Shown here in pieces: positions 3,757 to 22,663 of a stretch of 64,000 nt of DNA. Positions within the stretch are counted from its first letter, which is position 1; each line of letters begins with the position of its first letter. The translations under genes and the position numbers were made by a program. This DNA comes from Bacteroidales bacterium. Lineage in GTDB: Bacteria; Bacteroidota; Bacteroidia; Bacteroidales; SZUA-534. The stretch is from positions 1,088-65,087 of the forward strand of contig JAZUEN010000045.1 in NCBI GenBank assembly GCA_045640185.1. Reading direction: 5' to 3'. A model generated the notes under the pieces. It was not told the origin of the DNA and made no database searches. It worked only from the letters and a program-made list of their open reading frames with translations.

Positions 3757-6709
3757 ATTCTTGCATCAATTCTCTTACAATCTCTGTCATTTTTTTATTA
3801 TCTAATTGAGTTTTGAAATTGACCGAATAACCATCTATCTTGAGTTGCTCAAAGAACTTTTGAGCACAATCAATTTTTACTTGTTCTATTGGACGTAAAG
3901 TAGTCTTTCCTTCCACATCTTTTGTTTCAATAATGATATTTAGCTCTTTTTTGCCATCTTTTCGTTTGACAATGTACATAAAATCAGGACTATAATTGTC
4001 GATTATGGTTGGAATTGCAATACTTCGACGCGGAATTTTTCCAAACACAATTACATCATCTATATCTGATATTATATTTTTCTTTTCCAATTCTGAATCG
4101 TAAGCAATTCCTTCATACAAATATTTTGTAGAAGGGTTTCCTTTGTCTAATGTGATGCCAATAAGACCTTGGGTAATTTCATCTTTCAATTTTCCGTTTA
4201 CATCTGTCAGCGAAGTTTCTTTTGAATTATAGTTTGCTTGTTTATAATTCAGCAATCCTTTGACATTCTCAACTTTCCAATCATTGAATTGAGAGATAAT
4301 GTTTGTCATTGAACTTTCATTTATATATGTGCTTATGTATGGCGGATTTGCTTCAAAATACTCTACGATCTTATTGTGTATCAATTTTATTGGCAACGAT
4401 GTTGACTTGTTTATCCTGATAAGAAATTGATTGTATGACATTTCTTTCCCGTGAAGTTCATATTCAACGCCCGCATCACAAGCTAATGTTGCTTCATTAC
4501 CAACTATTTCAACTGCGTCACGACGACTATTAATTGTAACAAATTGAAAAGTATCTTTAGATAAATGAAAATCATTTTCAATCCGTTCGTTAAGTTCCTT
4601 TTCAAAGAAAATGATATACTTCTGATTGATTTTGCTCCAAAGTTCTTTTAGCTCGTCAAACCGTTCCTTCCTAATTTTGATAGTATTCGTCTGCTTTCTG
4701 TTTCGATCGGTAATTTTACTGTTATTCAAGCCACCTGTCTGAAATTCAGGATATTTATCAAAAAACTCTGATAGTTTTTCAACTTGAACTTTTTTGTTTG
4801 AATCGACGAATCCACTCAAAAGCATTTCTGCGAATAGTACATTTTTGTCTTTTCCTAATTTTGTGGCAACTTCCTCAAGTTTTTCATCTGTAATAATCAT
4901 TTCATTGGTTGATGTAACATCGCCATTGATTTCTGCCACCAAGCGATTTGCGAAATCAGCTTCTGTAAAATCGACAATATAATTCAACTGGAATTCTTCG
5001 TTTATACGATTTCCAAACTCATCAACTGGCAATCTCAAACCACGTCCAACTTCTTGAATCTTGCTAATTTCGCTTCCGCTTGAACGTAATTTAGTTATAG
5101 TAAACACATTAGGATTGTCCCAACCTTCTTTAAGCGTCCATTTTGAGAAAAGGAAACGACGAAGATTCCAATTGCCATTAGCATCTTTAAAAGACAATAG
5201 TCCCTTTTTGTTTCGTAAAATATCATCAACTTCTTTTGCAACGGCTTCATCACTATCACTATTATCTTGAGCAAAATAGCCTGCCGAGCAAGCTCTTAAA
5301 TTGCTTAAACTTGCATTTAGAAAATCTTGATATTCCGTTGAATTATCTTTTTTCAATTCCTTTTCGATGTTTTCTTTCAGTTTCTGCTCAAATTTATCAC
5401 GCAACCAAGCATTTTCTCCATTCTCATCACCTCTAAAGGACTGAATGTCATCAATAAAGAACAAGGCTAATGTTTTTATCTTTTGTGTGCGTTCAAAGTT
5501 TTTGCGTTCACTTTCAAAATGACGTTGAATTGCCAAATCTATCATTGCTTCCTGATACGACGATGAACAAATGTTCACATCAAATTCTTCGCCTTTACGC
5601 TTGGTTTGTCCATTTGAAAATGCGACATAGTCTTTGCCAATATCCTCAATGACAATTCCTTCCATATCGGAAGAAACAGAACCTAATGAATCATTCTTAT
5701 ACAACGTATAAGATTTTGTTTGTAATGCAGTAACATAATTTACATCAATCGACTCTCTATTTTTTATAGCCGTGACTTTTATTTTTTCATTCTTCTTGCT
5801 TGGTGATTCGAAATGTTCTTTCGCAACGCCTTTTACCAAATTCTGATTGAAAGCCTGACACGCATTCAAGTTGTACAAAAGATTTTCATAATCTTTTCTT
5901 ACGAATTTATTTTTTCCCTTTCCTTCGGTTATTTCAGGGAATGTTGCGCCAAAACGGATAATACATTGTGGTACAATTTTTTCCCGTAGAACTGTATAAG
6001 CTTTTTGGTCGCGTGAAAAGCGGTGTGGCTCATCAATAATCACTATCGGGTGCGTGCCTTTCAAGGCTTCGTATGGTTTGTAAAAGCCTTGTATGGTTTG
6101 ATCGTAATCTTCACGGCTCAACATTCCGTTCTTTTGGTCGGAAAGTAACGCCATATTAACCAACAAAACATATATTTTGTTGGTGGTTTGATGCGAACCA
6201 CTTACAAACTCTCTCACTTCCGAAGGGAACATTCGCTTTCCTTTTTTAGCCTGTTTTGCAACAAGTACGCACAAATCTATTTCAGCATTATACCCACAAG
6301 CATTGCTAAAATGACGTTTCACGTCGGCATCTCCTAAAAATGATTTTGCACCTTCCTTTATTGGCAATGTTGGCACGGCTACAATAAATTTATTGAAGCC
6401 GTAACGTTTGTGCAATTCATAAATAGTATGGGTGTAAACGTAGGTTTTGCCAGTTCCTGTTTCCATTTTCACATCAAGGTTTAGGAAATTGGGCGAGACG
6501 ATTTGTTTACGATTGTCTGCATCAACATTGTATTGTGAATCAATCTGAACAGACTTTATATTTTCTTTAATTTTAGTATCAGTAAAATCTATTTGCGGAT
6601 TTTCGTAAAGTTGTGTTGGCTTGTTAATCTGCACATTATCAAAAACCTTTACTATGGCATCGATGGCTTTTTGCTGATGCTCTAATCCACTTTGATATTT
6701 AATCTCCAT
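3755..6709 (-). CDS. res: Type III restriction-modification endonuclease/helicase subunit Res (EcoP1/EcoP15I-like)
   Basis: METGTGKT (Walker A), IIDEPH, EGWDNPNVF, QEVGRGLRL, and C-terminal YSPDF...IIETK nuclease motif. Lies 2 bp downstream of mod. Confidence 0.95.
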   Translation of the reverse strand: MEIKYQSGLEHQQKAIDAIVKVFDNVQINKPTQLYENPQIDFTDTKIKENIKSVQIDSQYNVDADNRKQIVSPNFLNLDVKMETGTGKTYVYTHTIYELHKRYGFNKFIVAVPTLPIKEGAKSFLGDADVKRHFSNACGYNAEIDLCVLVAKQAKKGKRMFPSEVREFVSGSHQTTNKIYVLLVNMALLSDQKNGMLSREDYDQTIQGFYKPYEALKGTHPIVIIDEPHRFSRDQKAYTVLREKIVPQCIIRFGATFPEITEGKGKNKFVRKDYENLLYNLNACQAFNQNLVKGVAKEHFESPSKKNEKIKVTAIKNRESIDVNYVTALQTKSYTLYKNDSLGSVSSDMEGIVIEDIGKDYVAFSNGQTKRKGEEFDVNICSSSYQEAMIDLAIQRHFESERKNFERTQKIKTLALFFIDDIQSFRGDENGENAWLRDKFEQKLKENIEKELKKDNSTEYQDFLNASLSNLRACSAGYFAQDNSDSDEAVAKEVDDILRNKKGLLSFKDANGNWNLRRFLFSKWTLKEGWDNPNVFTITKLRSSGSEISKIQEVGRGLRLPVDEFGNRINEEFQLNYIVDFTEADFANRLVAEINGDVTSTNEMIITDEKLEEVATKLGKDKNVLFAEMLLSGFVDSNKKVQVEKLSEFFDKYPEFQTGGLNNSKITDRNRKQTNTIKIRKERFDELKELWSKINQKYIIFFEKELNERIENDFHLSKDTFQFVTINSRRDAVEIVGNEATLACDAGVEYELHGKEMSYNQFLIRINKSTSLPIKLIHNKIVEYFEANPPYISTYINESSMTNIISQFNDWKVENVKGLLNYKQANYNSKETSLTDVNGKLKDEITQGLIGITLDKGNPSTKYLYEGIAYDSELEKKNIISDIDDVIVFGKIPRRSIAIPTIIDNYSPDFMYIVKRKDGKKELNIIIETKDVEGKTTLRPIEQVKIDCAQKFFEQLKIDGYSVNFKTQLDNKKMTEIVRELMQE

Positions 6710-6711
6710 AA

Positions 6712-8748
6712 CTAATAGCGAATGTCGAAGTTGATGTTTATGTTCTTTTGGCTATCTTTGAGTGTAGCAAGATTTTTCTTTAACATTTCGGTTTGCGTAA
6801 AAGTGAAGCTGTAGCCGAACAACACGATATTTTGCGGATTGAACGATGGTTCACTGCTGTATTTGTCAATTAAAGCCACCATTGCTTCTTCGTTGAAATT
6901 TTCGCCTTCCACAAAATACAAATGGCTCCCGCAATGATAGGCGGTATAATCTTTCAGTTTCAATTCTTCTACTTTTGCGCCAAACCCATAACCATCTTTC
7001 ACACACCAAGTTTCAAGAACTGTTTCTTTGCCAAAAGAGTGTAGAATATTCATATCGGCAAAGGCATTAAACATTGATGCATCAAATGTTTCCATCTTGT
7101 CCAATGTTTTTTGCGGAACATCCTGCAAAGTGAAGTGCTTGAAACCCCAGTCCATGTTTTGGAGTGTATTCTTCTTGGTCTCAATTTCACCCTTCAAGGT
7201 CTCAATCTCTTGCGCCAAAGGATTCTCTTCTTCAAAGATTTTTCCTTGCTGGCTCTCTTTGGCAAGTTTTTCTTCTTTGGTTTTGAGTTGAGTTTCTTTT
7301 TGAGATATTTCTGTTTGAAGGTCGGATTTGATTTTTGTGGCTGCTCGACGGATGCGCTCTTGGCCAATTTGGTCGATGGTTAGATAACCAGCTTTATGTG
7401 CTTCTTTATCTGTTGCAATAAATTCAGGAATTTGCACCATAATAAACTTTCTATTTTCTTCATCTTCTGCGTTTAATTTCATAACAGCGTGAGCGGTGGT
7501 GGCAGAACCAGAAAAGAAATCAAGAATGATAGAATCTTCTTTCAAATTTGCTAATTTAGACAAATGCACAATTAACTTTGTTCCTTTAGGATTATCAAAA
7601 ATTCCTTTTCCTAAAAGTTCTGCTAATTCTTCATTATTGCCATGTGTATGTCCAACAACATTATAATGCAAAACGCTACCTGGAACAACTCCTTTTTGAG
7701 AAACTTCTTCCAAATAAGTTTTTTTATCAACACCACCATTTTTATTAAAATAAAGTTCTCCTTCTTCATATAATTTCAATAAGGTTTCTTTGGAATATCG
7801 AGGGAACCGACCTTGGGGGCAACTCCATTTTATTCCATTAGGAAACATCACTTCATATTTTGAATTTTCTGTACCACTTTTAGCATGTAGTGGTGTGGGT
7901 TTCCATGGACCTTTAGGGTCATTGTCTCTATTTTTATAGCTTTCGTTTTGTTCTTCATTTCGGTTTAATCGACCAATTTTAAAAAGAGACTTTTCTTTTG
8001 CAAAGAATAAAATATATTCGTGTTGACCTGAAACATATTCGGTATCATTAGATACGGTATATTTACTTTCCCATAGTAATTGTATTATTAAATTCTCTTC
8101 TCCAAACACGTTATCACACAGCAACTTTAAATTAGCCTGTTCATTATCATCAATAGAAATAAAAATCACACCATCTTCGGTCAGCAAGTCTTTTGCAAGC
8201 ATTAGGCGCGGAGCCATAAACATAAGCCAAGCGGAATGTGAAGCCGAACCTCTTTTGCAAAGGTCAAGAATGCGCTTAGCCTTATCTTCGTCCACGCCCA
8301 ACTTGGTTTGTAATTGTTCGGGCGTGAAATTGAACTTGTCGTTATACACAAAACCGTCACTGCCAGTGTTATAGGGCGGATCTATGTAGATGCACTTGAT
8401 TTTACCAGAGTACGATTTCAGTAAATGTTTCAGCGCATCAAGATTATCGCCACTTATGTAAATGTTTTGGCTGTCTTTGTTTTCTGGCTTGCTGTTATGT
8501 TCTATATCTGGTTGAATAACCGTTTCGGTTTCGGTGCTGGCTATTAAATTCGCATAGTTTTTACCCAAAAAGTTTAAGTCGTAGCCTTCTTTGGTAATAT
8601 CGACTTTGTCGCTAATCAACGACTGAAATTTTTCCAAATCGAATTTTCCTTCTTTGTTGAAGCAGTTGGGAAAATCTGCGTGCAGTTTCCTAAAAACCAT
8701 ATCATTGGCTTTTATGGTTGCATTATCTGCTTTTGTGTCTTTTATCAT
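6712..8748 (-). CDS. mod: Type III restriction-modification adenine methyltransferase Mod
   Basis: GDNLDALK, IYIDPPYNTG (motif IV), FDNPKG, LDFFSGSATTAHAV (motif I), with an AT-rich TRD between them. Confidence 0.95.
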   Translation of the reverse strand: MIKDTKADNATIKANDMVFRKLHADFPNCFNKEGKFDLEKFQSLISDKVDITKEGYDLNFLGKNYANLIASTETETVIQPDIEHNSKPENKDSQNIYISGDNLDALKHLLKSYSGKIKCIYIDPPYNTGSDGFVYNDKFNFTPEQLQTKLGVDEDKAKRILDLCKRGSASHSAWLMFMAPRLMLAKDLLTEDGVIFISIDDNEQANLKLLCDNVFGEENLIIQLLWESKYTVSNDTEYVSGQHEYILFFAKEKSLFKIGRLNRNEEQNESYKNRDNDPKGPWKPTPLHAKSGTENSKYEVMFPNGIKWSCPQGRFPRYSKETLLKLYEEGELYFNKNGGVDKKTYLEEVSQKGVVPGSVLHYNVVGHTHGNNEELAELLGKGIFDNPKGTKLIVHLSKLANLKEDSIILDFFSGSATTAHAVMKLNAEDEENRKFIMVQIPEFIATDKEAHKAGYLTIDQIGQERIRRAATKIKSDLQTEISQKETQLKTKEEKLAKESQQGKIFEEENPLAQEIETLKGEIETKKNTLQNMDWGFKHFTLQDVPQKTLDKMETFDASMFNAFADMNILHSFGKETVLETWCVKDGYGFGAKVEELKLKDYTAYHCGSHLYFVEGENFNEEAMVALIDKYSSEPSFNPQNIVLFGYSFTFTQTEMLKKNLATLKDSQKNININFDIRY

Positions 8749-8769
8749 TTTGCGCCATAATTTGTGCGC

Positions 8770-8966
8770 CCCACTTATCTGTTTCGGATTTCTACGGACA
8801 TTATCTTAGGGCAAAAAAGAACGTGGACTCAACATTATCCACGCTCTGAGGCCCTAGGATTGCCCGTCACAACAGATAAGTCAAGCCCACGCCATACAGC
8901 GCAGGCATTTACTTGACTTATTCGTGTTGTAACATTCTTTCTAAAATTTCCTAGGTTTCAGAGCAG
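8770..8966 (-). promoter_or_regulatory. Candidate structured leader RNA / transcription attenuator upstream of mod-res
   Basis: Long nested hairpin (8843-8859 with 8949-8964; 8868-8885 with 8912-8930). Terminator at 8813-8843 with U tract. Alternative 14-bp helix between 8820-8833 and 8880-8893. Confidence 0.6.
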
Positions 8967-9039
8967 TTACCGAATAATAAGCAAACGCTTGTTAGTTAAT
9001 ATGTTAATTTATAATTTCTTTTCTATTTATTTGTAATAA

Positions 9040-10101
9040 TTATCTATTTGATATTAGTTTCTTAAGTTCGTCTTTGCTTGGCAAAACTGTTTCGTATTTT
9101 GTTGCAAAAATCTGGTTATTATCTTGCGGAAGAGTATATTCCACCACAGCGTTGTCTTTGTCTGCACAAAGCAAAAGTCCTATAGTTGGGTTCTCGTCTT
9201 CCAATTTTATTTCTCTATCGTAATAGTTTACATACATCTGCATCTGACCAATATCTTGATGCTTCAACTTGCCTCGCTTCAAGTCTATCAGTACAAAACT
9301 TTTCAATAGTCGGTTATAAAACACCAAATCGATGTAGAAGTGTTCTTCTGCAAACGTCAGTCTCACCTGTCTGCCCACAAAGGTAAACCCTTTGCCCAAT
9401 TCGAGCAAGAATGCCTGAAGATTATCAATCAATTTTTGCTCAAGTTTCTTTTCTGTATATTGCGGAAGTTCAGGAAGCCCTGTGAATTCCAATATATATG
9501 GATCCTTTAGCAGGTCTTGTGGTTTTTCTACAATTTGTCCTTTCTGAGACAATTCCAATATCTGTTCCTTATTCCTACTTAACGCAAGCCTTTCATACAG
9601 CGAAGAGTCAAATTGACGCTCCAATTCTCGCAGACTCCAATTGTTATTTGTTGCTTCTATTTCGTAAAAACGACGTTCTTCCAAATTTTCAATACGCATT
9701 AGTTTAAGGTAATGCGACCAACTGAGAGTAAATTGTGGAGTACTATGTTCTTCAGAAGAAATACGAGACAGTGTCTCGTATTTTGAATATGAAAGAAAGA
9801 AGTTCCTCATATTCTGTAAGTTGTCCACAGAAAACCCTTTTCCAAGTTTATCAGTCAGTCTTTTGGATACTTTCTGCAATGTTTTTTTTCCGTATTCCGC
9901 CCTTTCATCTCCGCCTTGTTCGTCTTCCACTATCATCCTGCCTATCTCGTAATAAGTATATACCATAGCGGTATTTACAAACGAAACGACTTTGGTACGT
10001 GCCTCCGTAATCAGCGCTTCAATGCGCGATGCAAGCACATCCGCACGGCCATTTTCGTCTTGAACAATATCTGTCTTTGCCTCTTTCATAATTTGCAACA
10101 T
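9040..10101 (-). CDS. DUF1016/YhcG-family PD-(D/E)XK nuclease-domain protein
   Basis: YYEIGRMIVE, LSWSHY, KDPYILEF, FLLELGKGFTFVGRQ, IDLVFYNR, IDLK, GQMQMY. Confidence 0.92.
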   Translation of the reverse strand: MLQIMKEAKTDIVQDENGRADVLASRIEALITEARTKVVSFVNTAMVYTYYEIGRMIVEDEQGGDERAEYGKKTLQKVSKRLTDKLGKGFSVDNLQNMRNFFLSYSKYETLSRISSEEHSTPQFTLSWSHYLKLMRIENLEERRFYEIEATNNNWSLRELERQFDSSLYERLALSRNKEQILELSQKGQIVEKPQDLLKDPYILEFTGLPELPQYTEKKLEQKLIDNLQAFLLELGKGFTFVGRQVRLTFAEEHFYIDLVFYNRLLKSFVLIDLKRGKLKHQDIGQMQMYVNYYDREIKLEDENPTIGLLLCADKDNAVVEYTLPQDNNQIFATKYETVLPSKDELKKLISNR

Positions 10102-12429: not shown

Positions 12430-15400
12430 CTATTTCTCGACTACGACAATCTCGCACCGACGGTTTTGCGCACGACCTTCTTCAGAGTCATTGGCAGCAA
12501 CAGGCCGCGTATTGGAGAATCCCATATACTTGACACGGTTGTAGCCGTTGGCAATCAGATAAGATGCTATTATGCGGGCACGGTCCTGTGCAATATCACG
12601 TCCTCCGCCAACTTCCGTATCATCGGCATGGCCATATACGGCTATCTTGACTGACGGGTTCTGCTTCAGCACACGCAACAGACGCTCAAGTTCAGGGAAT
12701 GCAATTGGCCTGATTTCCGAGCTTCCCGGTTCAAACGTCAGGTTCTCCATCGGAATAATGGCTCCCTCGGTAATCTGCTTAAGCATTATGTCCTTCTCAT
12801 TGCTTGAGAATGTAATCTCCTGCTTCTCATATAGTTTCTCGGCATAGAACCAGTAACCTGGCGCACTGACTTCAATGCTGTAATTATCGCCGGCAAGGAA
12901 ACTCATGTTGTACATTCCGGTCTTAAGATTCGACTCATCTTTTGCCACAACTTTTCCATCGCCATTCAATACGACTACGCTTGCCGCAATTGGGCTCAAA
13001 GTAGAAGCATCCTTGATTACGCCCGACAGATTTGCACGCCTTATGATTTCAATTGCATTGTCCGATTCGTTCAGACCATATTCTTGAGTTTGCGCAAAAT
13101 TGACCTTTCGGCGTTTTTCATTGAACACGAAGTTGATTTCGAACTGACGATAGCCGTTCAGCTGAACCTCATAGTTGTTTTGTTCAAGTTCAAAATTCTC
13201 AAAGAAGATGTTATTAATCTTCACGTTGTACTTATCTACGGTAGGCACGTAAAGCGTGTATTTTCCGTTTTGGTCTGTTAGCGTGCTGTATATCTTGCCT
13301 TTCGAATCTTCAGCAGAAACCTTGACGTTAGCCACGCTGATAGAGCCGAGATTCGACAATTTTGAACGATTCATCACTATTTGTCCGAACAGCTTGTTGT
13401 TTTCCCTGAACGGTATGTCAAGCTTCATGTTCTTTCCTATGTAAATTGTCTGCTTGCTTGTTTCGGTTGTATATGCGCCTTCAATTGCCCCCATTGGCAC
13501 ATATTCGATGGTATAAAATCCGTTTGGCACATTATTGTAAACCACACGGCCATCCATATCCGACATAAGGTCGATTGGCATGAAACTGCTGGCAGCATCT
13601 TCATTGAACCCTTGAGTCTCGTCAATTGTTATGCTGAACAAGACATCCTTTACGCCTGGTTCATCCTCGTCCCTGACATCGTTGCCATTCAAGTCCTTGT
13701 AGAATGTTATGTCAAGGTCATAATACTGGTAGCGTGGCTGATTGATATTGAAATCCTTGCGCAGGCGGGCCTCCACGTATGATCCCTGATACTTGTAGCG
13801 GTCTTCGGTAATGACATCGTAAGTTGACGAGAAGTTCCAGGTATGTGTCAATGTGAATTCCCAAGTCTTGCCAGGATATATAACCAGATCTGAGCCAAGG
13901 TTTATGCGGGTTGTCTTTTCGGTTATGTCATACGACACTGTCGAACGGTTGACAAAACGCACGTATTTAGGCATAAGGTAGAAATCAAGATAAGGATTTG
14001 CCCTGATTACTCGATTATATCCATTCCTGGTGAAATGTGTAAATTGCTGCTGAAGCGAATTTGGCCCATGATAGTAGTTGAAGAACACACCCCAAATACC
14101 CGACCTGTAACTTGCAGTTGCAAGCAATGAGAACCAATTCTTATTGACATTGAGCGTATCAAACCGCGCATCATATCTTGTTGCGAAATTTGCACCTGTC
14201 TTTAGTGTAAACGAAATCAAATCTCGTTTTGCTCCTTTTGCCCTAACTCCGCCATACGCCAGAATATTCCTTGTGGCAAATTCCGTGTTTGCATATCGCG
14301 AACTGAAATTGTCGCCGAATCGGCTCTCAGTTATCGCTCCCAACGAATACATTAGCGATTTTGTCAGATTCCTGCTGAATACTACACGCAACTCGTCATA
14401 ATCTACTTCAACACTAGGCGCAATGCTGTCGCCCACATAGCGGATTTGATTGTTGGCATTTCTAGCATAGGAAGCAACAATGTAATTGAAATCGCTCAAA
14501 TCTTGCCGAATTTGGCTGTTCAGCTCCAGTCTGCCATTATAGCGACCAGCATATTCGGGCTGGCCATAATGCAACATTCCGTACAAATGCGTGTTCTTGA
14601 TAGAATTTGAATATGTAGCATCAATTCCGATGCCCGATTGAACGCCTAGACGTGTAGAGTTTTTCCATTCCGAACTTGTGGCAGACAGTGTCATATTCAA
14701 GTTTCCGAACCTCTTCATTTGAATGTTGCTTGAAAAAAACGCGCCTATGTCTTGTCTGTCATTGTCTTTGTCATCACTCAAAGCCCCGCCCAGTTCAAAT
14801 GAGAAAGCATTGGATTTGCGCGAGAACGATGCCGCAAAATTATCCTTGTCAGAATATACAGAAGTCTCAGCCATAAGTTTTACCGAGTAATCGCCGAACG
14901 ACTGTTGCAGCAAACCTCCCCTGCCATACAAGTCAAGTGCCATTACCTGCTGGATGTCGCCCAGCCATGCAAACGTTCCATGTTTGTTGTTATACTTTAG
15001 TTCAAACCTGCCGCTTTTCCATGTTTGGTTCATATCGTCAAAATCCAGTTTGCTCATCATTGCCCGCAAATGAAAATCGCCGCCACGCTTAAGCAACAGA
15101 TTGCCATATATGTTTGCGCCAAACGACGGCTCCGCTCCGCCTATCAGGTCTCGGCCTATCAATTCCACGCACAGCATTGTATAGGTCGATGGTATCTCGT
15201 TGTAATATTGTCCGAGCAACTCACGCGCCCACAAGGTAGCATGCATCGCTGTGTCGCCTGTTGATACTCCAATCTGCAACCTATGGAACTTCTGTACATC
15301 GCTATAATATGATGTTTCTGAATATATAGGCAACGATATCACCGTATCGTGATACGATTTCAGCATAAACTCATCGCGCAAGATGCCGTTGCGGGCACCT

Positions 15401-15966
15401 ATTGCTGTCATATCATCGCCTAAATTGTAATCGAGGTAAAAAATCTCATCGGTATTTCCGTTGTTCGAAAACGAAAGCCGTATTTCTGAGTCTTTTTTTT
15501 GCTGATCGATGTATATTGTCCGAGTCAAGGGCTTGAACTTCACGTCTTGCACTTTCGGAATATCGACAAAACTGTATATTGTCTTGAATGTATTGCCTTT
15601 TTGGTCGGTAAGCGATGCCACTATCGAGTAGCCTATCTCGCCTTTGGCATCAAGCGATGCCGATGCCCTGAACGGGATGAGCAGCGAATCGTGTGGCTCA
15701 AGCGTATATTGCTGGTTCTTCTCGCCCATAAACGACCATCCGGCAGGATAACTGAACTTTACATAGAATGTAAGTTTCTGTGATGTGGGGTTTTTTACAG
15801 ACAACCCGTTAAAGAAAGTCTTGTTTGAAACCGTCTCGATTTTCTTTTTCAGGAAATCAATTTCCAGTTTGTCTTGTGCGTTTTCCAGAAAATAGAATTG
15901 TGCATACGAAGCGTACGCAATGCTCCATACAATAAAGGTTAGCAAATATTTAACCTTCAAGCTCAT
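12430..15966 (-). CDS. Large outer-membrane protein: N-terminal Ig-like domains, predicted beta-barrel (usher-like), SdrD-B/carboxypeptidase-like domains, C-terminal OmpA-like domain
   Basis: Signal peptide, long alternating beta-strand region, FYKDLNGNDVRDEDEPGV, and C-terminal FEPGSS...GHADD...GRAQNRRCEIV. The usher assignment is inference. Confidence 0.65.
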   Translation of the reverse strand: MSLKVKYLLTFIVWSIAYASYAQFYFLENAQDKLEIDFLKKKIETVSNKTFFNGLSVKNPTSQKLTFYVKFSYPAGWSFMGEKNQQYTLEPHDSLLIPFRASASLDAKGEIGYSIVASLTDQKGNTFKTIYSFVDIPKVQDVKFKPLTRTIYIDQQKKDSEIRLSFSNNGNTDEIFYLDYNLGDDMTAIGARNGILRDEFMLKSYHDTVISLPIYSETSYYSDVQKFHRLQIGVSTGDTAMHATLWARELLGQYYNEIPSTYTMLCVELIGRDLIGGAEPSFGANIYGNLLLKRGGDFHLRAMMSKLDFDDMNQTWKSGRFELKYNNKHGTFAWLGDIQQVMALDLYGRGGLLQQSFGDYSVKLMAETSVYSDKDNFAASFSRKSNAFSFELGGALSDDKDNDRQDIGAFFSSNIQMKRFGNLNMTLSATSSEWKNSTRLGVQSGIGIDATYSNSIKNTHLYGMLHYGQPEYAGRYNGRLELNSQIRQDLSDFNYIVASYARNANNQIRYVGDSIAPSVEVDYDELRVVFSRNLTKSLMYSLGAITESRFGDNFSSRYANTEFATRNILAYGGVRAKGAKRDLISFTLKTGANFATRYDARFDTLNVNKNWFSLLATASYRSGIWGVFFNYYHGPNSLQQQFTHFTRNGYNRVIRANPYLDFYLMPKYVRFVNRSTVSYDITEKTTRINLGSDLVIYPGKTWEFTLTHTWNFSSTYDVITEDRYKYQGSYVEARLRKDFNINQPRYQYYDLDITFYKDLNGNDVRDEDEPGVKDVLFSITIDETQGFNEDAASSFMPIDLMSDMDGRVVYNNVPNGFYTIEYVPMGAIEGAYTTETSKQTIYIGKNMKLDIPFRENNKLFGQIVMNRSKLSNLGSISVANVKVSAEDSKGKIYSTLTDQNGKYTLYVPTVDKYNVKINNIFFENFELEQNNYEVQLNGYRQFEINFVFNEKRRKVNFAQTQEYGLNESDNAIEIIRRANLSGVIKDASTLSPIAASVVVLNGDGKVVAKDESNLKTGMYNMSFLAGDNYSIEVSAPGYWFYAEKLYEKQEITFSSNEKDIMLKQITEGAIIPMENLTFEPGSSEIRPIAFPELERLLRVLKQNPSVKIAVYGHADDTEVGGGRDIAQDRARIIASYLIANGYNRVKYMGFSNTRPVAANDSEEGRAQNRRCEIVVVEK

Positions 15967-15967
15967 T

Positions 15968-16462
15968 CTATTTAAACCTCACTGTAAACTCCAAATCTGT
16001 TGAGAAATAGTCACTCGAATAACCTTTCAGAGTGCCATTCTCACCCAATATGTATGATATTTTGATATCTTTCACCGCATTAGTCTTGGGATGAATTCCA
16101 TGCGCCAATTGGGTTTCGGTATCGCTTAACACAATCTCTGCACCGTCACTTTCAGAATACGACGACCGCAACTTAAGCACATCCAATGGCATCTTTCTTA
16201 TGCCGTAGTCCGGGTTAAGGCTGGCGTCATTAGCCTTGACCAGCAACTCCCATTCGTTTGTTGATTCATCGGCATCACTAAAATACACCCTGACAGTTGT
16301 GTAGTCATCGTATGTTATCCCATTCTTTACCTTGGAATAGGAATTCACATTGAACACCACATTCGCTCCTCCCACTATCTGCAACCGCACCGATGGTTGC
16401 GCTTGCGGAAAAGCAAGCATGGCAAGCAATAGGAATGGTAATATCAGTAGTGCCTTAAGCAT
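15968..16462 (-). CDS. Secreted pilin-like subunit (minor), paralog of 16531..17112
   Basis: Likely ATG at 16462. Signal peptide. LQIVGGANVVFNVNS resembles MNVVSGGNIEFAFNT of the paralog. C-terminal strand DYFSTDLEFTV. Confidence 0.55.
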   Translation of the reverse strand: MLKALLILPFLLLAMLAFPQAQPSVRLQIVGGANVVFNVNSYSKVKNGITYDDYTTVRVYFSDADESTNEWELLVKANDASLNPDYGIRKMPLDVLKLRSSYSESDGAEIVLSDTETQLAHGIHPKTNAVKDIKISYILGENGTLKGYSSDYFSTDLEFTVRFK

Positions 16463-16474
16463 AACATAAAAGAA

Positions 16475-16510
16475 CAAAAGTCAAACAAGTTATTACAAGT
16501 TTGACTTTTG
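16475..16510 (-). promoter_or_regulatory. Intercistronic stem-loop after first pilin-like gene
   Basis: Perfect 12-bp inverted repeat caaaagtcaaac / gtttgacttttg. Confidence 0.6.
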
Positions 16511-16530
16511 CTTTGATGTATTATGTGTTA

Positions 16531-17112
16531 TTATTGTTCGCTCAATACAAGGAAAATATTGGTAGAATAACGGTCTGGTGCCAAATTTGCCGACAAAACA
16601 GAACCAGATGCACCTTCAGCATCATCACCACAACTCCAATTAATAGTATAAGCATTTGCATTAATATCACCACCTTTAGACTTTACTAGGGTACAAGCAG
16701 TAGCATCTGAATTTTTACCACTCAAATTGGTCCAGTCTTTCTGATAATCACTGTCACCAGGTGCTACAGTTCCATTGTTTGCAACTTTGAAACCTACGAG
16801 ACCCAATTCCATTGTATGGGTTGCATCATCAGCGCCATAAAATTGGTCATCTTCGGTGTATAACAACACCTTAAAATCAACAGAAGAAGCCACCGTAAAC
16901 TTGGTATCGTAACGTGGTGAGTTGCTGATACCGCTTGTGTATTGATTAATTGTATTGAATGCAAACTCGATGTTACCACCAGACACAACATTCATACGCA
17001 TGATTGAATTTATGTTGACTGATACTGGAATGACAGCATTGTCAACCACTGCTTGAGCGTAAGTGCCAAGAGCCAAGCCTAAGGCACATACTGAAAGGAA
17101 AATCTTTTTCAT
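16531..17112 (-). CDS. Secreted pilin-like subunit (putative major), CS1/Csu-like
   Basis: Signal peptide without lipobox, N-terminal IPVSVNINS strand, two Cys in the mature part, C-terminal PDRYSTNIFLVL strand. Confidence 0.6.
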   Translation of the reverse strand: MKKIFLSVCALGLALGTYAQAVVDNAVIPVSVNINSIMRMNVVSGGNIEFAFNTINQYTSGISNSPRYDTKFTVASSVDFKVLLYTEDDQFYGADDATHTMELGLVGFKVANNGTVAPGDSDYQKDWTNLSGKNSDATACTLVKSKGGDINANAYTINWSCGDDAEGASGSVLSANLAPDRYSTNIFLVLSEQ

Positions 17113-17149
17113 AATTTCAAATTTTTAATGTCACTTAATAAAACGGCTA

Positions 17150-17157
17150 CAAATTTA
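17150..17157 (-). promoter_or_regulatory. Bacteroidota -7 promoter element (TAAATTTG) for pilin-like operon
   Basis: TAnnTTTG 38 bp upstream of the ATG at 17112. Confidence 0.5.
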
Positions 17158-17431
17158 AACATAATACATTACGCAAGTATCTTTTACATTGCTTTTTTTG
17201 CAAAAAGCATCAAAAAAAATTGTTTTTTTGATGGTTCATGTGGCATTTGCAACTTAAAACTTCAGCAATTGCCGGTCACTGGCACCGTTATTGTTTATCG
17301 TTAATAGCTAAACACTTATATTTATATATTCACAAAACTAACGTAGCAGGCTTCAGCTACCGACACGGCACTACCCCACCTTTCGTGCAACAGGTCGCAC
17401 AAGAAAGCCGTACCTATACGAAAAAAAATGT

Positions 17432-17533: not shown

Positions 17534-18754
17534 GTGGAGAAAAGAGTTGTAATAACAGGAATGGGTATTTATTCGTGCATAGGCAAAAACCTGGCCGAAG
17601 TTCAAGACTCATTATACAACGGCAAGTCGGGCATAGTGTTCGACCAAGCACGTAAAGACATGGGGTTCCGTTCGGCATTAACAGCCTATATCGAAAAACC
17701 AGACTTGAAGGGCATACTAAGCCGCAACCAAAGAATATTCATGCCGGAACAGGCCTTATATGCCTATGTGGCCACCGCTGAGGCTCTCCAAAACGCAAAG
17801 ATAGATCAGGACTACCTTAACAACAACGTAGTAGGCTTGCTTTACGGAAACGACAGCAGCGCCGACCCTGTAGTAAAGGCAGTTGACACAATGCGCGAGA
17901 AAAAGGACACTACCCTGGTTGGCTCTGGCGCCATTTTCCAATCAATGAACTCAACCGTGACAATGAACCTTTCATGCATATTCAAGCTGAGAGGAATGAA
18001 CTTGACGGTTTCGGGGGCTTGCGCAAGCGGTTCGCACGCCATTGGTTTGGGTGCGTTGCTTATCAGGAATGGCTTGCAGGACATGGTTGTCTGCGGTGGA
18101 GCTCAAGAAGTGAACCCCTTCTCCATCGGCAGTTTCGACGGCATTAGCGCATTTTCAACCCGAGAAAGTGAACCGACACGCGCCTCCCGCCCATTCGACC
18201 GCGACCGCGACGGACTTATCCCAAGCGGTGGCGCCGCTACTGTAATCATTGAGGAATATGAGCATGCTGTAAAACGTGGCGCACCGATTCTCGCAGAAAT
18301 ATTGAGTTACGGCTTCTCATCAAACGGAGACCATATATCGACACCAAATGTCGAGGGACCTACCGCTTCTCTTGAAATGGCAATAAAACTTGCTGGCATC
18401 GACATTCGCGAAATCGGATACATCAACGCTCACGCCACATCGACACACGTAGGCGACGCCCAGGAAGCCAAAGCGATATACAATGTATTCGGCGACCAAC
18501 GCACTGAAGTGACTTCGACAAAATCGCAGACAGGCCATGAAATGTGGATGGCCGGAGCTAGCGAAATCATCTACTCCATGCTGATGATGAAAAACAACTT
18601 CATCGCGGCAAACCTCAATTTCGAAAACCCTGACGAAGATTCAGCCAAGCTTCTAATTCCAGACAAACGCATCGAAAAGAAATTCGACACATTCCTTTCC
18701 AATTCATTCGGATTTGGAGGAACCAATGCAACACTAATTGTACGCAATATGTAA
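17534..18754 (+). CDS. Beta-ketoacyl-ACP synthase (FabB/FabF family)
   Basis: Cys-His-His triad in GACASG, NAHATST and KSQTGHE; SNSFGFGGTN. Confidence 0.93.
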   Translation: MEKRVVITGMGIYSCIGKNLAEVQDSLYNGKSGIVFDQARKDMGFRSALTAYIEKPDLKGILSRNQRIFMPEQALYAYVATAEALQNAKIDQDYLNNNVVGLLYGNDSSADPVVKAVDTMREKKDTTLVGSGAIFQSMNSTVTMNLSCIFKLRGMNLTVSGACASGSHAIGLGALLIRNGLQDMVVCGGAQEVNPFSIGSFDGISAFSTRESEPTRASRPFDRDRDGLIPSGGAATVIIEEYEHAVKRGAPILAEILSYGFSSNGDHISTPNVEGPTASLEMAIKLAGIDIREIGYINAHATSTHVGDAQEAKAIYNVFGDQRTEVTSTKSQTGHEMWMAGASEIIYSMLMMKNNFIAANLNFENPDEDSAKLLIPDKRIEKKFDTFLSNSFGFGGTNATLIVRNM

Positions 18755-18760
18755 TTTGCA

Positions 18761-19006
18761 ATGGAAAAAACTGAACTGATAAGCAAGTTGAACTATATTC
18801 TGGCAAAAGAATTCGAGGTTGACGCGGCAACAATCAGCGATGAGGCCAACATCAAGGAAACCCTTATGCTGAACAGCCTTGACGTAGTTGACATGATTGC
18901 CGTCATTGAATACGAATTCGGCGTAAAGATTCCTGCCGACGAATATGCCAAGATGAAGCAATTCTCGCAGCTATACGACTACATGGATCGTCATATAAAC
19001 AATTGA
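18761..19006 (+). CDS. Acyl carrier protein (NSL variant)
   Basis: 81 aa, acidic, LNSLDVVD...EYEFGVKI. Confidence 0.85.
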   Translation: MEKTELISKLNYILAKEFEVDAATISDEANIKETLMLNSLDVVDMIAVIEYEFGVKIPADEYAKMKQFSQLYDYMDRHINN

Positions 19007-19043
19007 AAACATACTAAGAATCAAATACAAACTCAAAAAGATT

Positions 19044-19289
19044 ATGGAGAAACAAGAACTAATCGAAAAAATCAACCAAGTGTTGGCTGATGAATTTGAA
19101 GTTGAAGTAAACGACATCACTCCCGATGCCGACATCAAGGAAACGCTAAGCCTTGACAGCCTTAGCCTTGTTGACATGGTAGCTCTTATTGAAGAGGAAT
19201 TTGGTGTGAAAATAAAAGGCACCGAATTGGCAAGCGTAAAAACATTCGGTCTGCTATACGACTTTGTATTCGACAGAATGGATAAGTAA
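19044..19289 (+). CDS. Acyl carrier protein
   Basis: 81 aa, acidic, LDSLSLVDM...EEEFGVKI. Confidence 0.9.
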   Translation: MEKQELIEKINQVLADEFEVEVNDITPDADIKETLSLDSLSLVDMVALIEEEFGVKIKGTELASVKTFGLLYDFVFDRMDK

Positions 19290-19334
19290 TTTGTCCGCCA
19301 ATTCTTTGATTGTCCAAATTGAACCATTTTAGAA

Positions 19335-19757
19335 ATGACTCTTTTTGAAGGTGAAGAAATAAAGAAACTCATTCCACAACGCGAACCCATAATCATGGTA
19401 TCGCACTTCTTTGAGGCATCTTCCGAATGGGCAAAGACCGGACTTCAAATAACTGAAGACAACATATTCTGCAAAAACGGAAAACTCACTGAGCCTGGCC
19501 TGATTGAGCACATTGCCCAATCGGCCGCGGCTTTTGCGGGGTTCAATGCAACACAGTCAGGCTCGCAAGTCGTACTTGGCTACATTGGCGAAATAAAGAA
19601 TTTCGCTCTGCACCAACTGCCTCCAGTTGGATCTCTTATTGAAACAAGAATCAGCGTAGTGTCAGAAGTGATGAACGTTATGCTGATGAAAGCCTGCACC
19701 ATTTTAATCGACACCACCATTGCCGAATGTAGCATAAAATTGTTTATGGACAGGTAA
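19335..19757 (+). CDS. Hotdog-fold 3-hydroxyacyl-ACP dehydratase-like subunit
   Basis: LIPQREPIIMV...GLIEHIAQSAAA...GYIGEIK. Confidence 0.8.
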   Translation: MTLFEGEEIKKLIPQREPIIMVSHFFEASSEWAKTGLQITEDNIFCKNGKLTEPGLIEHIAQSAAAFAGFNATQSGSQVVLGYIGEIKNFALHQLPPVGSLIETRISVVSEVMNVMLMKACTILIDTTIAECSIKLFMDR

Positions 19758-19802
19758 TGGCTTCCGTCAACAATTTGGTCACACCTATTACAATCCAATA
19801 AA

Positions 19803-20180
19803 ATGTTACTGAAAGAATATTACAACGTTTTGTCGCAAACCGTCGACAATAACAATGGAAATAACATATTCCGCATCAAGCTAAACCCAGAACACGAGAT
19901 ATACAAGGGACATTTTCCTGAGAGACCAGTATCGCCTGGAGTATGCAACATTCAGATAATGAAGGAATGTGCCGAGCGGATTGTCGGCAAGGAATTGACC
20001 ATCAAGAACATGGTACAATGCAAAATGCCCGCAATGATAACCCCCGACGGCACCCCGGAACTTTCAGTTTCTGTTGCAATTGAAAAAAATGACGACGGAT
20101 ACAAAACCGTGGCATCAATATTCAACGAATCGACAACATACATCACATTTAAAGGGACACTAACACCAGAACAACTATGA
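19803..20180 (+). CDS. FabZ-like 3-hydroxyacyl-ACP dehydratase
   Basis: HEIYKGHFPERPVSPGVC motif. Confidence 0.85.
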   Translation: MLLKEYYNVLSQTVDNNNGNNIFRIKLNPEHEIYKGHFPERPVSPGVCNIQIMKECAERIVGKELTIKNMVQCKMPAMITPDGTPELSVSVAIEKNDDGYKTVASIFNESTTYITFKGTLTPEQL

Positions 20181-22663
20181 CTAGCCTAGCCATACGCATA
20201 TACCGTTTTTTCAAGAAACACAAAGCCGTAATGTACGCAACAATGTTGGCAAGCCTTGCCCTGTTTGCGTTCATCGGCAGTCAAATGAAGTACGAGGAAG
20301 ACATCTCGAAACTGCTTCCTGGTGTCGACCCTTCAAAATCCGAAGGCTTGGTATTCTCACAGTTGCAAATAAAAGACCGCATCTTCATACAGTTTGTTGC
20401 CAAAAACGACTCAACTAGCATCGATGAAGTAATTGAGTCTTGCGACATCTTTGTCGATTCATTGCTTGAACACGATGCCAACGACAACGACATACGCGAC
20501 GTTCTCTACCGCATTGATATGGACATGCTGATGAATGCCGCCACTTTTGCAGTCGAAAATGTGCCATCATTCCTCGACTCATCCATGTACGCCACTATCG
20601 ACTCGATGCTCACAAAAGAGAACATCGAATCGCAAATGGCTGAAAATCTCGACCTAATAATGTCTGGCGATGAACTGGCATATAACTACCTTGTTCCTTA
20701 CGACCCTGTCGGTTTCAGGAACCTTGCAATAAATGCTCTTGGAAACAAAAAAGATGAAAAGACAGGAAGTTTCACCATTTACAACCAACATCTGGTTACA
20801 ACCGACAGTTCAGTAGCACTGGTATTTCTAACACCGAATTTTGTAGCATTCGACTCAAAGACCGGCACAAGGCTTGCCAACAAGATTGAAGCCGAAATAG
20901 CAAGCATACAGAATGAATATCCCAACGTGGAAGTCCTTTTCCATGGCGCACCTATACAAAGCGTATTCAACTCTCGGCAGATAAAAGCCGACCTGATGCT
21001 GACCATGGGCCTGTCAATGTTGCTGATATGCATTGTTCTGCTGCTTTGTATGCGAAACAAATCAACATTGGCAATGCTTATATTCCCCATTCTCTACGGA
21101 ATGGCGTTCGCACTTGCCTGCGTTTATCTGGTTCAGGGACAAATGTCGCTTATGGCATTAGGAATTGGCGCCATTGTGCTTGGTGTGGCGTTGAGTTACT
21201 GTCTGCACGTAATTACACACTATAAATATGTAAGCGATCCCGAACGTGTCTTGCGCGAGCAAACCCGTCCTGTCCTGCTTGGAACCATAACCACGATTGG
21301 AGCATTCATAGGGCTTTTGTTCACAAAATCGCCACTGCTGCGCGATTTCGGAATGTTCGCATCGCTCGGGATGGTTGGCACTACAGGCTTTTGTCTCATA
21401 TTCCTTCCGCAATTTTTCCGTCCTGAACGCAACCGCAAGTCAAACAAGGCATTCAACCTGCTCGAGCGTTTCAACAGTTACCAATTCGAGAATGTCCGTT
21501 GGTTTATTGCATTGATAGCCATTGTTTTTGTAGGATGCCTGATAATGTCGCGCCACGTCACATTCGATTCCGACCTGAAAAACATAGGCTACTTTGAACC
21601 GAATGTCATGCGTTCAAGCCAATTATATGCAGAAAAGACAAGCAACGGATTTGCTACAACAAACTATGCCGTCACCGCACACAGTCTCGATTCGGCATTA
21701 ATATACAATATGGCACTCTGCAACACTTGCGATTCTCTTCAAAAATCAGGCATAATACAAGGTTACAGCAAGTTCGGCAAATTGCTACTCCCATTCGGAG
21801 AACAACAGAAGCGCATTGATTTCTGGAACAGATACTGGACCGACGAGAAAAGGCAAAAGGTAAAAACCGACATAAGCAAGGCTGGCGAAAAATTGGGTAT
21901 CAAGGCCGAAATGTTCCAACCGTTCTTTGAAATGATCGATGCCGAATACCAACCTACATCGCTTTACGAATCACAAGCATTGCCAAATGGCTTCATGTCA
22001 AGCCTTGTCGAACAGGTTGGCGATTCGTACCTGGTTTTCACATCAGTCAAGGCACCTGCCGAAAATGTAAGCCGCAACAACGGCATCTTTACCGCCCTGC
22101 CCCACACTGTAGTTGTCGACCCATTCTACTATACTGGCAATATGGTGAAACTGCTGAACGACGATTTCAACATTGTTCTCGGCATATCATCACTGTTTGT
22201 GTTTATTGTACTGTTACTATCGTTCAAACGACTATTGCTGGCAATAATCGCATTTTTGCCAATGGGCATGAGTTGGTACATCACGCTTGGCATTATGGGA
22301 ACATTCGGAATGCAGTTCAACTTGATTAACATCGTCATTTCAACATTCATTTTCGGCATCGGCGTTGACTACAGCATCTTCATAATGGACGGACTATTGT
22401 CAAAAGCACGAGGCGACAATTCTGCAAATCAAAATCTATTGCTATATCACAAGACCGCTATTGTTTTTTCAGCATTTGTATTGATAGTTGGAATTGCATC
22501 TCTGATATTCGCCACACACCCAGCCATCTCATCAATAGGCTTTGCCACACTGGTCGGAATGACATCTACTGTTGTAATTGCCTACACGGTTCAGCCATTC
22601 CTATTCAGGTTGCTGATGAAGACGAAATACAAAGACAAATTGATGAATCAGGCAAACGGCTGA
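20177..22663 (+). CDS. MMPL/RND-family lipid exporter
   Basis: Two repeats of a periplasmic domain plus 5-6 TM helices; GVALSYCLH and GIGVDYSIF. Confidence 0.88.
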   Translation: MTSLAIRIYRFFKKHKAVMYATMLASLALFAFIGSQMKYEEDISKLLPGVDPSKSEGLVFSQLQIKDRIFIQFVAKNDSTSIDEVIESCDIFVDSLLEHDANDNDIRDVLYRIDMDMLMNAATFAVENVPSFLDSSMYATIDSMLTKENIESQMAENLDLIMSGDELAYNYLVPYDPVGFRNLAINALGNKKDEKTGSFTIYNQHLVTTDSSVALVFLTPNFVAFDSKTGTRLANKIEAEIASIQNEYPNVEVLFHGAPIQSVFNSRQIKADLMLTMGLSMLLICIVLLLCMRNKSTLAMLIFPILYGMAFALACVYLVQGQMSLMALGIGAIVLGVALSYCLHVITHYKYVSDPERVLREQTRPVLLGTITTIGAFIGLLFTKSPLLRDFGMFASLGMVGTTGFCLIFLPQFFRPERNRKSNKAFNLLERFNSYQFENVRWFIALIAIVFVGCLIMSRHVTFDSDLKNIGYFEPNVMRSSQLYAEKTSNGFATTNYAVTAHSLDSALIYNMALCNTCDSLQKSGIIQGYSKFGKLLLPFGEQQKRIDFWNRYWTDEKRQKVKTDISKAGEKLGIKAEMFQPFFEMIDAEYQPTSLYESQALPNGFMSSLVEQVGDSYLVFTSVKAPAENVSRNNGIFTALPHTVVVDPFYYTGNMVKLLNDDFNIVLGISSLFVFIVLLLSFKRLLLAIIAFLPMGMSWYITLGIMGTFGMQFNLINIVISTFIFGIGVDYSIFIMDGLLSKARGDNSANQNLLLYHKTAIVFSAFVLIVGIASLIFATHPAISSIGFATLVGMTSTVVIAYTVQPFLFRLLMKTKYKDKLMNQANG

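Follow-up and report, generated by a model that had tools for sequence, protein, structure and literature searches.

The DNA analysed here is a 64,000-nucleotide stretch (the window) of contig JAZUEN010000045.1 from a Bacteroidales genome assembly (GCA_045640185.1, lineage SZUA-534). Its list of open reading frames (ORFs) contains three co-oriented genes on the minus strand, named pA, pB and pC (Table 1), which encode two small secreted proteins and a large outer-membrane barrel protein. The pC ATG lies 1 nt past the pB stop codon. The pB frame opens with TTG, and an in-frame ATG at position 16462, giving 164 amino acids (aa), is the likelier start. By fold and by sequence profile pA is a likely fibre subunit of the TLP-1 type, and the locus is presented here as a candidate for the assembly of such fibres. 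A preliminary description of this DNA, made from its letters alone, had listed the same gene set (193 aa, about 164 aa and 1178 aa), all of which is present on the minus strand. It had further taken the two small proteins to be secreted paralogues without a lipobox, each ending in a characteristic strand motif; signal peptides, profile alignment and family alignments bear this out, and both motifs are conserved.

Table 1. Features of the locus and its displaced neighbour. Nucleotide positions are those of the window; residue numbers refer to the precursor proteins.
Feature	Position (nt)	Residues	Strand	Remarks
pA	16531-17112		-	193 aa; candidate major subunit, TLP-1-like
pA signal peptide		1-19	-	predicted
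pA N-terminal extension		about 21-37	-	putative donor strand; conserved in family
pA incomplete Ig-like body		38-193	-	C-terminal strand PDRYSTNIFLVL
pB	15968-16477		-	169 aa from TTG; pA paralogue, predicted acceptor-only subunit
pC	12430-15966		-	1178 aa; outer-membrane barrel protein
pC two N-terminal Ig-like beta-sandwiches	15217-15882	29-250	-	from model
pC outer-membrane beta-barrel	13738-15192	259-743	-	about 26 strands, no inserted plug; DSSP of model
pC beta-sandwich row	12832-13725	748-1045	-	SdrD_B-like, then CarboxypepD_reg-like
pC OmpA_C-type domain	12433-12780	1063-1178	-	peptidoglycan-binding type
Promoter-like motif TAAATTTG	17150-17157		-	38 nt upstream of pA ATG; fits TAnnTTTG
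Stem-loop between pA and pB	16473-16512		-	14-bp stem, then U-rich run
TPR-TM-SpoIIE (PP2C) phosphatase orthologue	24926-26824		+	displaced about 7.8 kb, inverted; candidate regulator

pA is a probable subunit of the TLP-1 type

Signal peptides were predicted in all three proteins. The Gln directly after the predicted cleavage site is invariant in the pA family (Q20) and in the pB family (Q25), and Q23 after the predicted site of pC is nearly invariant. The signal peptide of pA contains a Cys that varies within the family, so pA has no lipobox. In type V pili (FimA/Mfa1 type) the precursors are lipoproteins whose lipobox Cys is conserved. The pA and pB families, by contrast, have no conserved signal-peptide Cys and carry an invariant Gln at the predicted signal peptidase I site. 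No fimbrillin family of Pfam was matched at E<=1, and pA and pB contained no Pfam family of any kind.

The pA model (predicted local distance difference test, pLDDT, 90) leaves residues 18-37 without secondary structure and then forms a beta-sandwich, DRYSTNIFLVL being its last strand. The extension has alternating hydrophobic residues, and D24, P29 and I37 within it are invariant in the family alignment. The C-terminal strand has three invariant residues (R181, Y182 and N185) and two that vary very little (D180 and T184). As modelled, pA thus has both marks of a donor-strand subunit, an incomplete immunoglobulin (Ig)-like body and an N-terminal extension outside the monomer fold.

In a Foldseek search of the PDB, the pA model retrieved TLP-1b and TLP-1a at the top (E 4.5e-5 and 1.2e-4), followed by CfaB, FimF, CooA, TasA, SafA, AggA, PapK and Csu. 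VIA-align gave the two TLP-1 chains Z 9.5 and 9.4 (159 residues aligned, root-mean-square deviation (rmsd) 3.2), pairing residues 20-193 of the model with residues 1-237 of the TLP-1 chain. Among 987 chains only these two attained Z>=8, with the third at 6.7, and they are the closest fold match across the whole of mature pA. Nearly all of the best 50 VIA-align matches are donor-strand-exchange subunits, among them Csu, FimG, CfaE (the CFA/I adhesin), TasA and cannulae.

The sequence profile pointed to the same structures. A profile built from 53 pA sequences (A5) found TLP-1 with E values of 2.3e-4 and 7.9e-4, better than for any other of 177,635 PDB sequences, and aligned in the same register from the mature N-terminus through the donor strand. 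The broader profile was required for this: with a narrower first one (A2) the TLP-1 matches had E no better than 0.5 and 0.84. Single-sequence PDB searches with the pA-like proteins of two Flavobacteriales loci returned chance matches to BRCA1 or nothing.

TLP-1a and TLP-1b (PDB 9ikj and 9ikk) were obtained from filtered pond water as 8-nm tubular fibrils, in which the N-terminal strand of protomer n+4 fills the beta2-beta7 cleft of protomer n by donor-strand exchange (Wang et al., PNAS 2024; PMC11494351). AlphaFold2 (AF2) is reported to predict the N-terminal strand as disordered in relatives, the nearest relative in the AlphaFold Database is a Flavobacteriales protein (Bacteroidota), and the authors state that no matching gene, organism or machinery was identified (PMC11494351). 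Our literature searches found no later paper naming a TLP-1 locus. With the TLP-1 protomers pA shares a signal peptide, an N-terminal strand left unstructured by AF2 and an Ig-like body whose last strand edges the acceptor cleft. They differ in length, with 236-237 residues in the TLP-1 protomers against about 173 in mature pA.

These results agree with the preliminary description, which had read the small proteins as pilin-like, incomplete-Ig subunits of a donor-strand fibre outside type V, an idea that is now well supported. It had taken CS1 and Csu pilins as its reference; CfaB does rank 3rd to 7th by Foldseek, but TLP-1a/b are the better reference.

Homologues of pA number 139 in a 90%-clustered database, every one unnamed or 'hypothetical', and the family comprises 383 clusters at E<=0.001 in a 50%-clustered library of 1.84 billion representatives. 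The source genome has a single pA and a single pB.

pB is a paralogue without donor strand

The paralogy of pA and pB is clear from profile alignment (hhalign probability 99.5%, E 4e-23, with 43 sequences in the pB alignment). Aligned to pA, pB shows a 14-residue gap precisely over pA AVVDNAVIPVSVNI, and its mature N-terminus begins about 5 residues ahead of the first body strand. The acceptor side is kept, and the C-terminal strand follows the family consensus DxYxVDLxFxL. Having no donor strand, pB can therefore only accept one and would have to sit at a chain end; it is probably an end subunit.

pC combines an MtrB-like barrel with an OmpA anchor

The large protein was modelled as two N-terminal beta-sandwiches (boundaries at about 35-135 and 142-250), a barrel, a row of further sandwiches and an OmpA-type end. 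About 26 barrel strands lie between residues 265 and 739 of the AF2 model, joined by short loops or helices. Pfam gave no family in the first 750 residues at E<=1. Beyond these, SdrD_B was matched at residues 756-825, CarboxypepD_reg was also matched, and OmpA (PF00691) was matched at residues 1077-1169 (E 1.2e-12; 48.4 bits against a cut-off of 27.2). A Ca-type motif, DxNGN...EPG, lies inside the SdrD_B-like domain and is invariant in 28 pC homologues (K757, D758, G761, N762, E769, P770, G771).

The OmpA domain superimposes on Pal and OmpA structures with Z 14-15 and rmsd about 2. In NCBIfam the OmpA-type end alone was matched, with similarity to 'outer membrane integrity' OmpA-like proteins. 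The C-terminal 200-250 residues resemble the CarboxypepD_reg and OmpA_C cassette of PorE-type proteins (PDB 6top; Z 12.6 to 6top_B), this anchoring cassette being all that pC shares with them. Proteins of about 690 aa in many genomes of the order, presumably PorE, match pC residues 930-1178. Two general points, that the OmpA-type end has to bind peptidoglycan and that the strands of a barrel are even in number, would place both Ig-like arrays of pC in the periplasm, given the even strand count and the OmpA end.

The best match of the barrel is MtrB (6r2q_B; Z 20.5, rmsd 5.6, 431 residues aligned), which ranks first within the top 1000 chains of Foldseek and again when 48,161 chains were scanned independently of Foldseek. 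The ushers FimD (3ohn) and PapC (2vqi) reach Z 14.1 each, and porins, TonB-dependent receptors and SusC 12-14.5. Foldseek lists ushers and LptD for pC at E 1e-11 to 1e-7. With MtrB, the 26-strand sheath of the MtrCAB porin-cytochrome complex, the pC barrel shares its fold and the same apparent strand number. It differs from MtrB in that identity is 11%, no MtrB_PioB Pfam match was found in pC at E<=1, no cytochrome partner is present, and pC carries large extra periplasmic domains and the OmpA anchor.

The usher barrel is defined as having 24 strands, with strands 6 and 7 separated by an inserted plug domain. The Usher family (PF00577) had no match in pC at E<=1 and none in the source genome, which is 96% complete (an E. 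coli control was positive); PapD_N (PF00345) had no match in this genome either. With no Usher or PapD Pfam match, about 26 strands, no plug and a far better match to MtrB, pC stands outside the usher family. In the preliminary description pC was an usher fused to an OmpA domain, for which a plugged barrel of about 24 strands was expected. The Ig-like N-terminus, the very large barrel, the DxNGN...EPG motif and the OmpA end are all found in the model and by Pfam, but the usher identity has to be given up and no plug was seen; the wording should be changed to 'non-usher, MtrB-like barrel with an OmpA anchor'. Judged from the model, pC could plausibly act as a functional counterpart of ushers.

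Between pA and pC the hhalign probability was 15%. A complex prediction of pC residues 29-258 with mature pA returned a score of 0.00 (mark 0.32) and carries no weight either way. The pC N-terminus matched generic Ig-like families in the ESM Atlas (NPCBM_assoc/CARDB, score <=0.85).

pD is a candidate helper protein

A secreted two-Ig-domain protein of about 270 aa, named pD, is syntenic with the operon in 37 of 44 loci. A protein of about 380 aa with MORN_2 repeats is always paired with it (one example lies at 359-1498 on the minus strand of locus L080, with counterparts in the 37 loci). In the source genome the pair is found on another contig (C87), away from the operon. In two of the four loci with the gene order pB-pA-pC, pD lies immediately 3' of pC on the same strand.

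Sub-threshold Pfam matches of pD members were to Cep192_D6 (30/33), MSP (28/33) and WxLIP_PGBD (23/33), the first two being PapD-clan families. The pD family profile matched EfmWxLIP1 at E 0.026. A WxL-interacting protein (WxLIP) is described as having Ig-like domains in tandem and a beta-hairpin that, by prediction, is inserted into its partner (PMC10599100). Like the WxLIPs (DUF916-DUF3324; EfmWxLIP1, PDB 9i25/9i1y), pD is a secreted tandem Ig-like protein; it differs in that its matches fall below curated thresholds, it has no C-terminal membrane helix, and it belongs to another phylum and another type of envelope. The ESM Atlas returned only uncharacterised Bacteroidota clusters for pD. 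The protein is therefore a candidate strand-donating helper, which is a lead and not a result. A kinship of pD with pC (hhalign probability 75%) was not counted because it was partly driven by the signal peptides.

The preliminary description had also held that the system has no separate chaperone. The genome has indeed no PapD_N match, but pD is syntenic in most loci and present here on another contig, so that the absence of a separate chaperone is doubtful. As a possible replacement it had named the N-terminal Ig domains of pC, the first of which looks like a macroglobulin domain and not specifically like PapD.

Comparison with known fibre systems

The locus resembles chaperone-usher pili (archaic Csu, alternate CFA/I-CS1, classical Fim/Pap) in several respects. 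It has incomplete-Ig subunits with an N-terminal donor strand, a predicted end subunit that lacks one (as does the FimH or PapG pilin domain), a large monomeric outer-membrane barrel beside periplasmic Ig-like domains, and the major-subunit gene in first place with a hairpin after it. It differs in that the locus has no Usher or PapD Pfam match, the pC barrel has about 26 strands, no plug and an OmpA anchor, the N-terminal domain of pC is macroglobulin-like, and pD is nearer to the WxLIP/ASH type than to PapD.

TasA/TapA of Bacillus and the archaeal bundling pili and cannulae are likewise donor-strand-complemented fibres without a PapD/usher pair. TasA is reported to polymerise by donor strand without a chaperone, and TapA is a minor paralogue acting at the fibre end. 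Fold similarity of pA to 8aur_A and 9h8b reaches Z 6.4. The locus described here gave no camelysin/TasA match in Pfam, and these other fibres cross no outer membrane.

Conservation of the three-gene unit and its neighbours

A scan of one genome per species gave 79 pC-type loci. They are carried by Salinivirgaceae, Tenuifilaceae, other Bacteroidales and metagenome-assembled genomes (MAGs), the last bearing the labels Rikenellaceae, Draconibacterium or Chlorobiota or, in two cases, belonging to Flavobacteriales. The three-gene unit is conserved in gut and sediment Bacteroidales. Gene order was counted in those 54 loci where the sequence upstream of pC runs to 1500 nt or more, the 25 others being too short. 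Small genes stand ahead of pC in all 54, in the orders A-B-C (39), A-A-B-C (2), A-A-C (3), B-A-C (4) and A-x-C (6), where x is an unclassified ORF of 174-260 aa in the B slot. The conservation of gene neighbourhood that had been proposed as a check is thereby established.

Matches to pC that include the barrel occur in at least 36 of 301 genomes of the order among the matches listed. A full-length tally of 219/301 is inflated because the C-terminal CarboxypepD_reg-OmpA cassette also matches the proteins of about 690 aa. A distant pC-like group with 22-28% identity (e.g. in genomes G179, G279, G042, G200 and G093) consists of ORFs of 970-1300 aa that match pC residues about 30-965 only, their C-terminal anchor being different or absent. 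The Flavobacteriales loci (L077 and L079) match pC in a similar manner, up to residue 957.

Syntenic families were obtained by clustering of flanking ORFs, followed by Pfam. A phosphatase with TPR, transmembrane (TM) and SpoIIE (PP2C) parts lies directly upstream in 44 of the 49 loci with enough DNA, and a SiaC-family protein is encoded downstream in 25 loci. In the window a lipid-type gene cluster lies between the operon and the phosphatase orthologue (Table 1). This cluster looks inserted, since the TPR-SpoIIE gene fills the space in most related loci. It is lipid or aryl-polyene-like (17534-22663, plus strand), runs divergently from pA, and contains a ketoacyl-acyl carrier protein (ACP) synthase-like ORF (17534-18754, plus strand), two 81-aa ACP-like ORFs, two small ORFs that are maybe dehydratases, and an MMPL-family membrane protein recognised by Pfam (20177-22663, plus strand). 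A RelA/SpoT-family protein (26857-29025, plus strand) follows directly after the phosphatase.

The source genome contains 12 SiaC-family genes and 35 SpoIIE-type phosphatase matches, many of the latter in ORFs of 700-1100 aa. Partner-switch signalling modules are thus unusually numerous for a 3-Mb genome. In the window, the RelA/SpoT gene is followed by that of a 276-aa protein whose C-terminus carries a type IX secretion sorting domain (29260-30090, plus strand); a 1402-aa ORF lies at 30709-34917 (minus strand). Positions 4001-10101 have a low GC content (0.34-0.38 against 0.42-0.48 elsewhere), end at a gene for a YhcG/DUF1016 PDDEXK nuclease (9040-10101) and may be a mobile or foreign island.

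Promoter-like motif, hairpin and RNA coverage

A promoter had been proposed ahead of pA. The motif TAAATTTG is present and fits TAnnTTTG, the Bacteroidetes -7 promoter consensus, but its class occurs 45 times in the window against 59 expected. As the class is not enriched, the motif was regarded as a positional hint only. Sigma-70 promoter-like sites, searched in a combined promoter and terminator scan, were no more frequent than in shuffles.

The hairpin between pA and pB folds with -23 kcal/mol (z -5.56), and 0 of 200 shuffles folded equally well. It was missed by the terminator scan because its loop exceeds the length allowed there. A hairpin 3' of pA was found in 47 of 57 related loci at z<=-2.5 (100 mononucleotide shuffles each), with differing sequences. 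The pA-pB hairpin is a candidate attenuator/terminator or RNA stabiliser, and its conserved position is compatible with attenuation behind the major-subunit gene.

Contigs from a horse-gut RNA library, in which DNA carry-over is possible, tile the whole operon. A single contig of 1539 nt runs through pA and pB into pC as far as codon 126, which is no proof of a single transcript. Depth was 122 for this contig and 9-10 for the two pC contigs; these depths cannot rank the genes, and the intergenic stretch upstream of pA that is not covered by RNA was not taken as a finding. DNA near-identical to positions 12430-17400 occurs in animal gut metagenome runs, with 0.74-0.82 of the sampled words, and one horse-gut RNA library matches 0.70 of the words from the same segment. 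At least half of these words were found in six rows from three studies, one of them maybe from the source sample.

Proposed assembly of the fibre and alternative explanations

On balance, and with somewhat better than even confidence, we read the operon as a new, usher-independent assembly locus for extracellular fibres of the TLP-1 type. pA would be exported by Sec and cleaved ahead of the invariant Gln. It would then polymerise as the extension of one pA fills the open groove of another, the acceptor groove being expected between the first body strand and the C-terminal strand. pB would cap one end of each chain, either as the distal tip, by analogy with chaperone-usher pili, or alternatively as a cell-proximal nucleator or surface-held seed. 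pC would serve as outer-membrane conduit and/or anchor; with about 26 strands its barrel would be wide enough for a folded subunit, its Ig-like domains would stand in the periplasm beside the barrel, and its OmpA domain would tie it to peptidoglycan. The hairpin after pA would tend to keep the major subunit in excess, regulation probably lies with the TPR-PP2C phosphatase and SiaC-type proteins, and pD may be a periplasmic chaperone that keeps subunits competent.

Several points weigh against this reading. The TLP-1 sequence match is confined to about 60 N-terminal residues at E about 1e-4, the structural Z of 9.5 lies moderately above the 7-8 often reached by unrelated models, and mature pA is shorter than the TLP-1 protomers by about 60 residues. 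The n+4 donor of TLP-1 (PMC11494351) leads to four intertwined chains, which is hard to square with extrusion through one pore. For this four-chain geometry several cooperating pores or extracellular assembly suit better than one usher-like pore. pC has no detectable relationship to ushers, the confidence of its model is middling (pLDDT 79, predicted template modelling score (pTM) 0.52), and its barrel is most like that of MtrB, which sheathes a resident protein and is not a secretor. The first N-terminal domain of pC is macroglobulin-like (4ziu_A; Z 12.2, rmsd 2.5, 105 residues aligned) and not specifically PapD-like. In the source genome the operon has neither the candidate chaperone pD nor the phosphatase as a direct neighbour. 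No fibre, surface location or polymer has yet been observed for the family.

The likeness to MtrB could also mean that pA and/or pB sit permanently in or under the pC barrel and form no polymer, like MtrA in MtrB or LptE in LptD, as a peptidoglycan-tethered complex for envelope integrity or transport. MtrB is by far the best barrel match (next barrels at Z 14-15), the strict 1:1:1 gene linkage would suit such a complex, and so would the OmpA tether together with the 'outer membrane integrity' similarity of the C-terminus. We nevertheless consider it unlikely. Against it stand the TLP-1 link and the near-uniform list of donor-strand-exchange matches, no CxxCH haem motif is present in the pA and pB translations, and the strong hairpin after pA suggests unequal stoichiometry. 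The conserved unstructured extension of pA is exactly what is deleted in pB, as predicted by a polymer with an end subunit and not by a 1:1 plug. A different question is where polymerisation would take place. pC might export monomers only, with the fibre assembling outside the cell in the manner of curli or TasA, without chaperone or usher-like growth at the base, and with surface-held pB nucleating growth at the distal end. The n+4 geometry with four chains per fibril would suit assembly outside the cell, and chaperone-free donor-strand polymerisation is reported for archaeal cannulae (PMC12518558). No PapD-family gene was found in the genome, and acceptor-only pB could offer its open groove as a seed. 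Set against this are the conserved, syntenic pD with its weak PapD-like and WxLIP matches and the roughly 500 residues of periplasmic Ig-like domains in pC, seemingly beyond the needs of a simple pore, and we rate such self-assembly as rather improbable. It is a variant of the favoured reading and not its opposite, and the tests made here do not separate it from growth at the base.

A highly diverged but true chaperone-usher system, with pC as a FimD/PapC homologue extended by OmpA and either pD or the pC N-terminus as a diverged PapD, would account for the Foldseek scores of FimD and PapC (in the range given above for ushers) and for the weak matches of pD to Cep192_D6 and MSP. Some usher alignments also extend past the barrel into the beta-sandwiches (pC 261-949 against FimD 138-833), like usher C-terminal domains. 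Against this stand the lack of PF00577 and PF00345 matches in pC and in the genome, the strand number of about 26 in place of 24, and the barrel without plug. The usher Z of about 14 is moreover at the level of porins, TonB-dependent receptors and LptD (12-14.5) and far under that of MtrB, so that we regard descent from ushers as very improbable.

Meaning for TLP-1-type fibrils and for Bacteroidota

TLP-1a/b were among the first bio-entities to be solved by cryo-electron microscopy before anything else was known of them (PMC11494351). With the assembly locus favoured here, these orphan fibrils gain a candidate gene family, a home in Bacteroidales and candidate machinery, and the origin of TLP-1-type fibres becomes testable in cultured relatives. 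More tentatively, and at somewhat less than an even chance, the module may be the genetic basis of TLP-1-type fibrils and a new class of Gram-negative pilus biogenesis, characterised by a peptidoglycan-anchored, plug-less 26-strand barrel of non-usher type, an acceptor-only cap, a WxLIP/ASH-like helper and PP2C/SiaC control. If pC is the assembly platform, outer-membrane barrels of unrelated kinds would have been joined to donor-strand-exchange pili on two or more occasions. If the reading is true, a fibre outside type V would be added to those of Bacteroidota, animal-gut members included.

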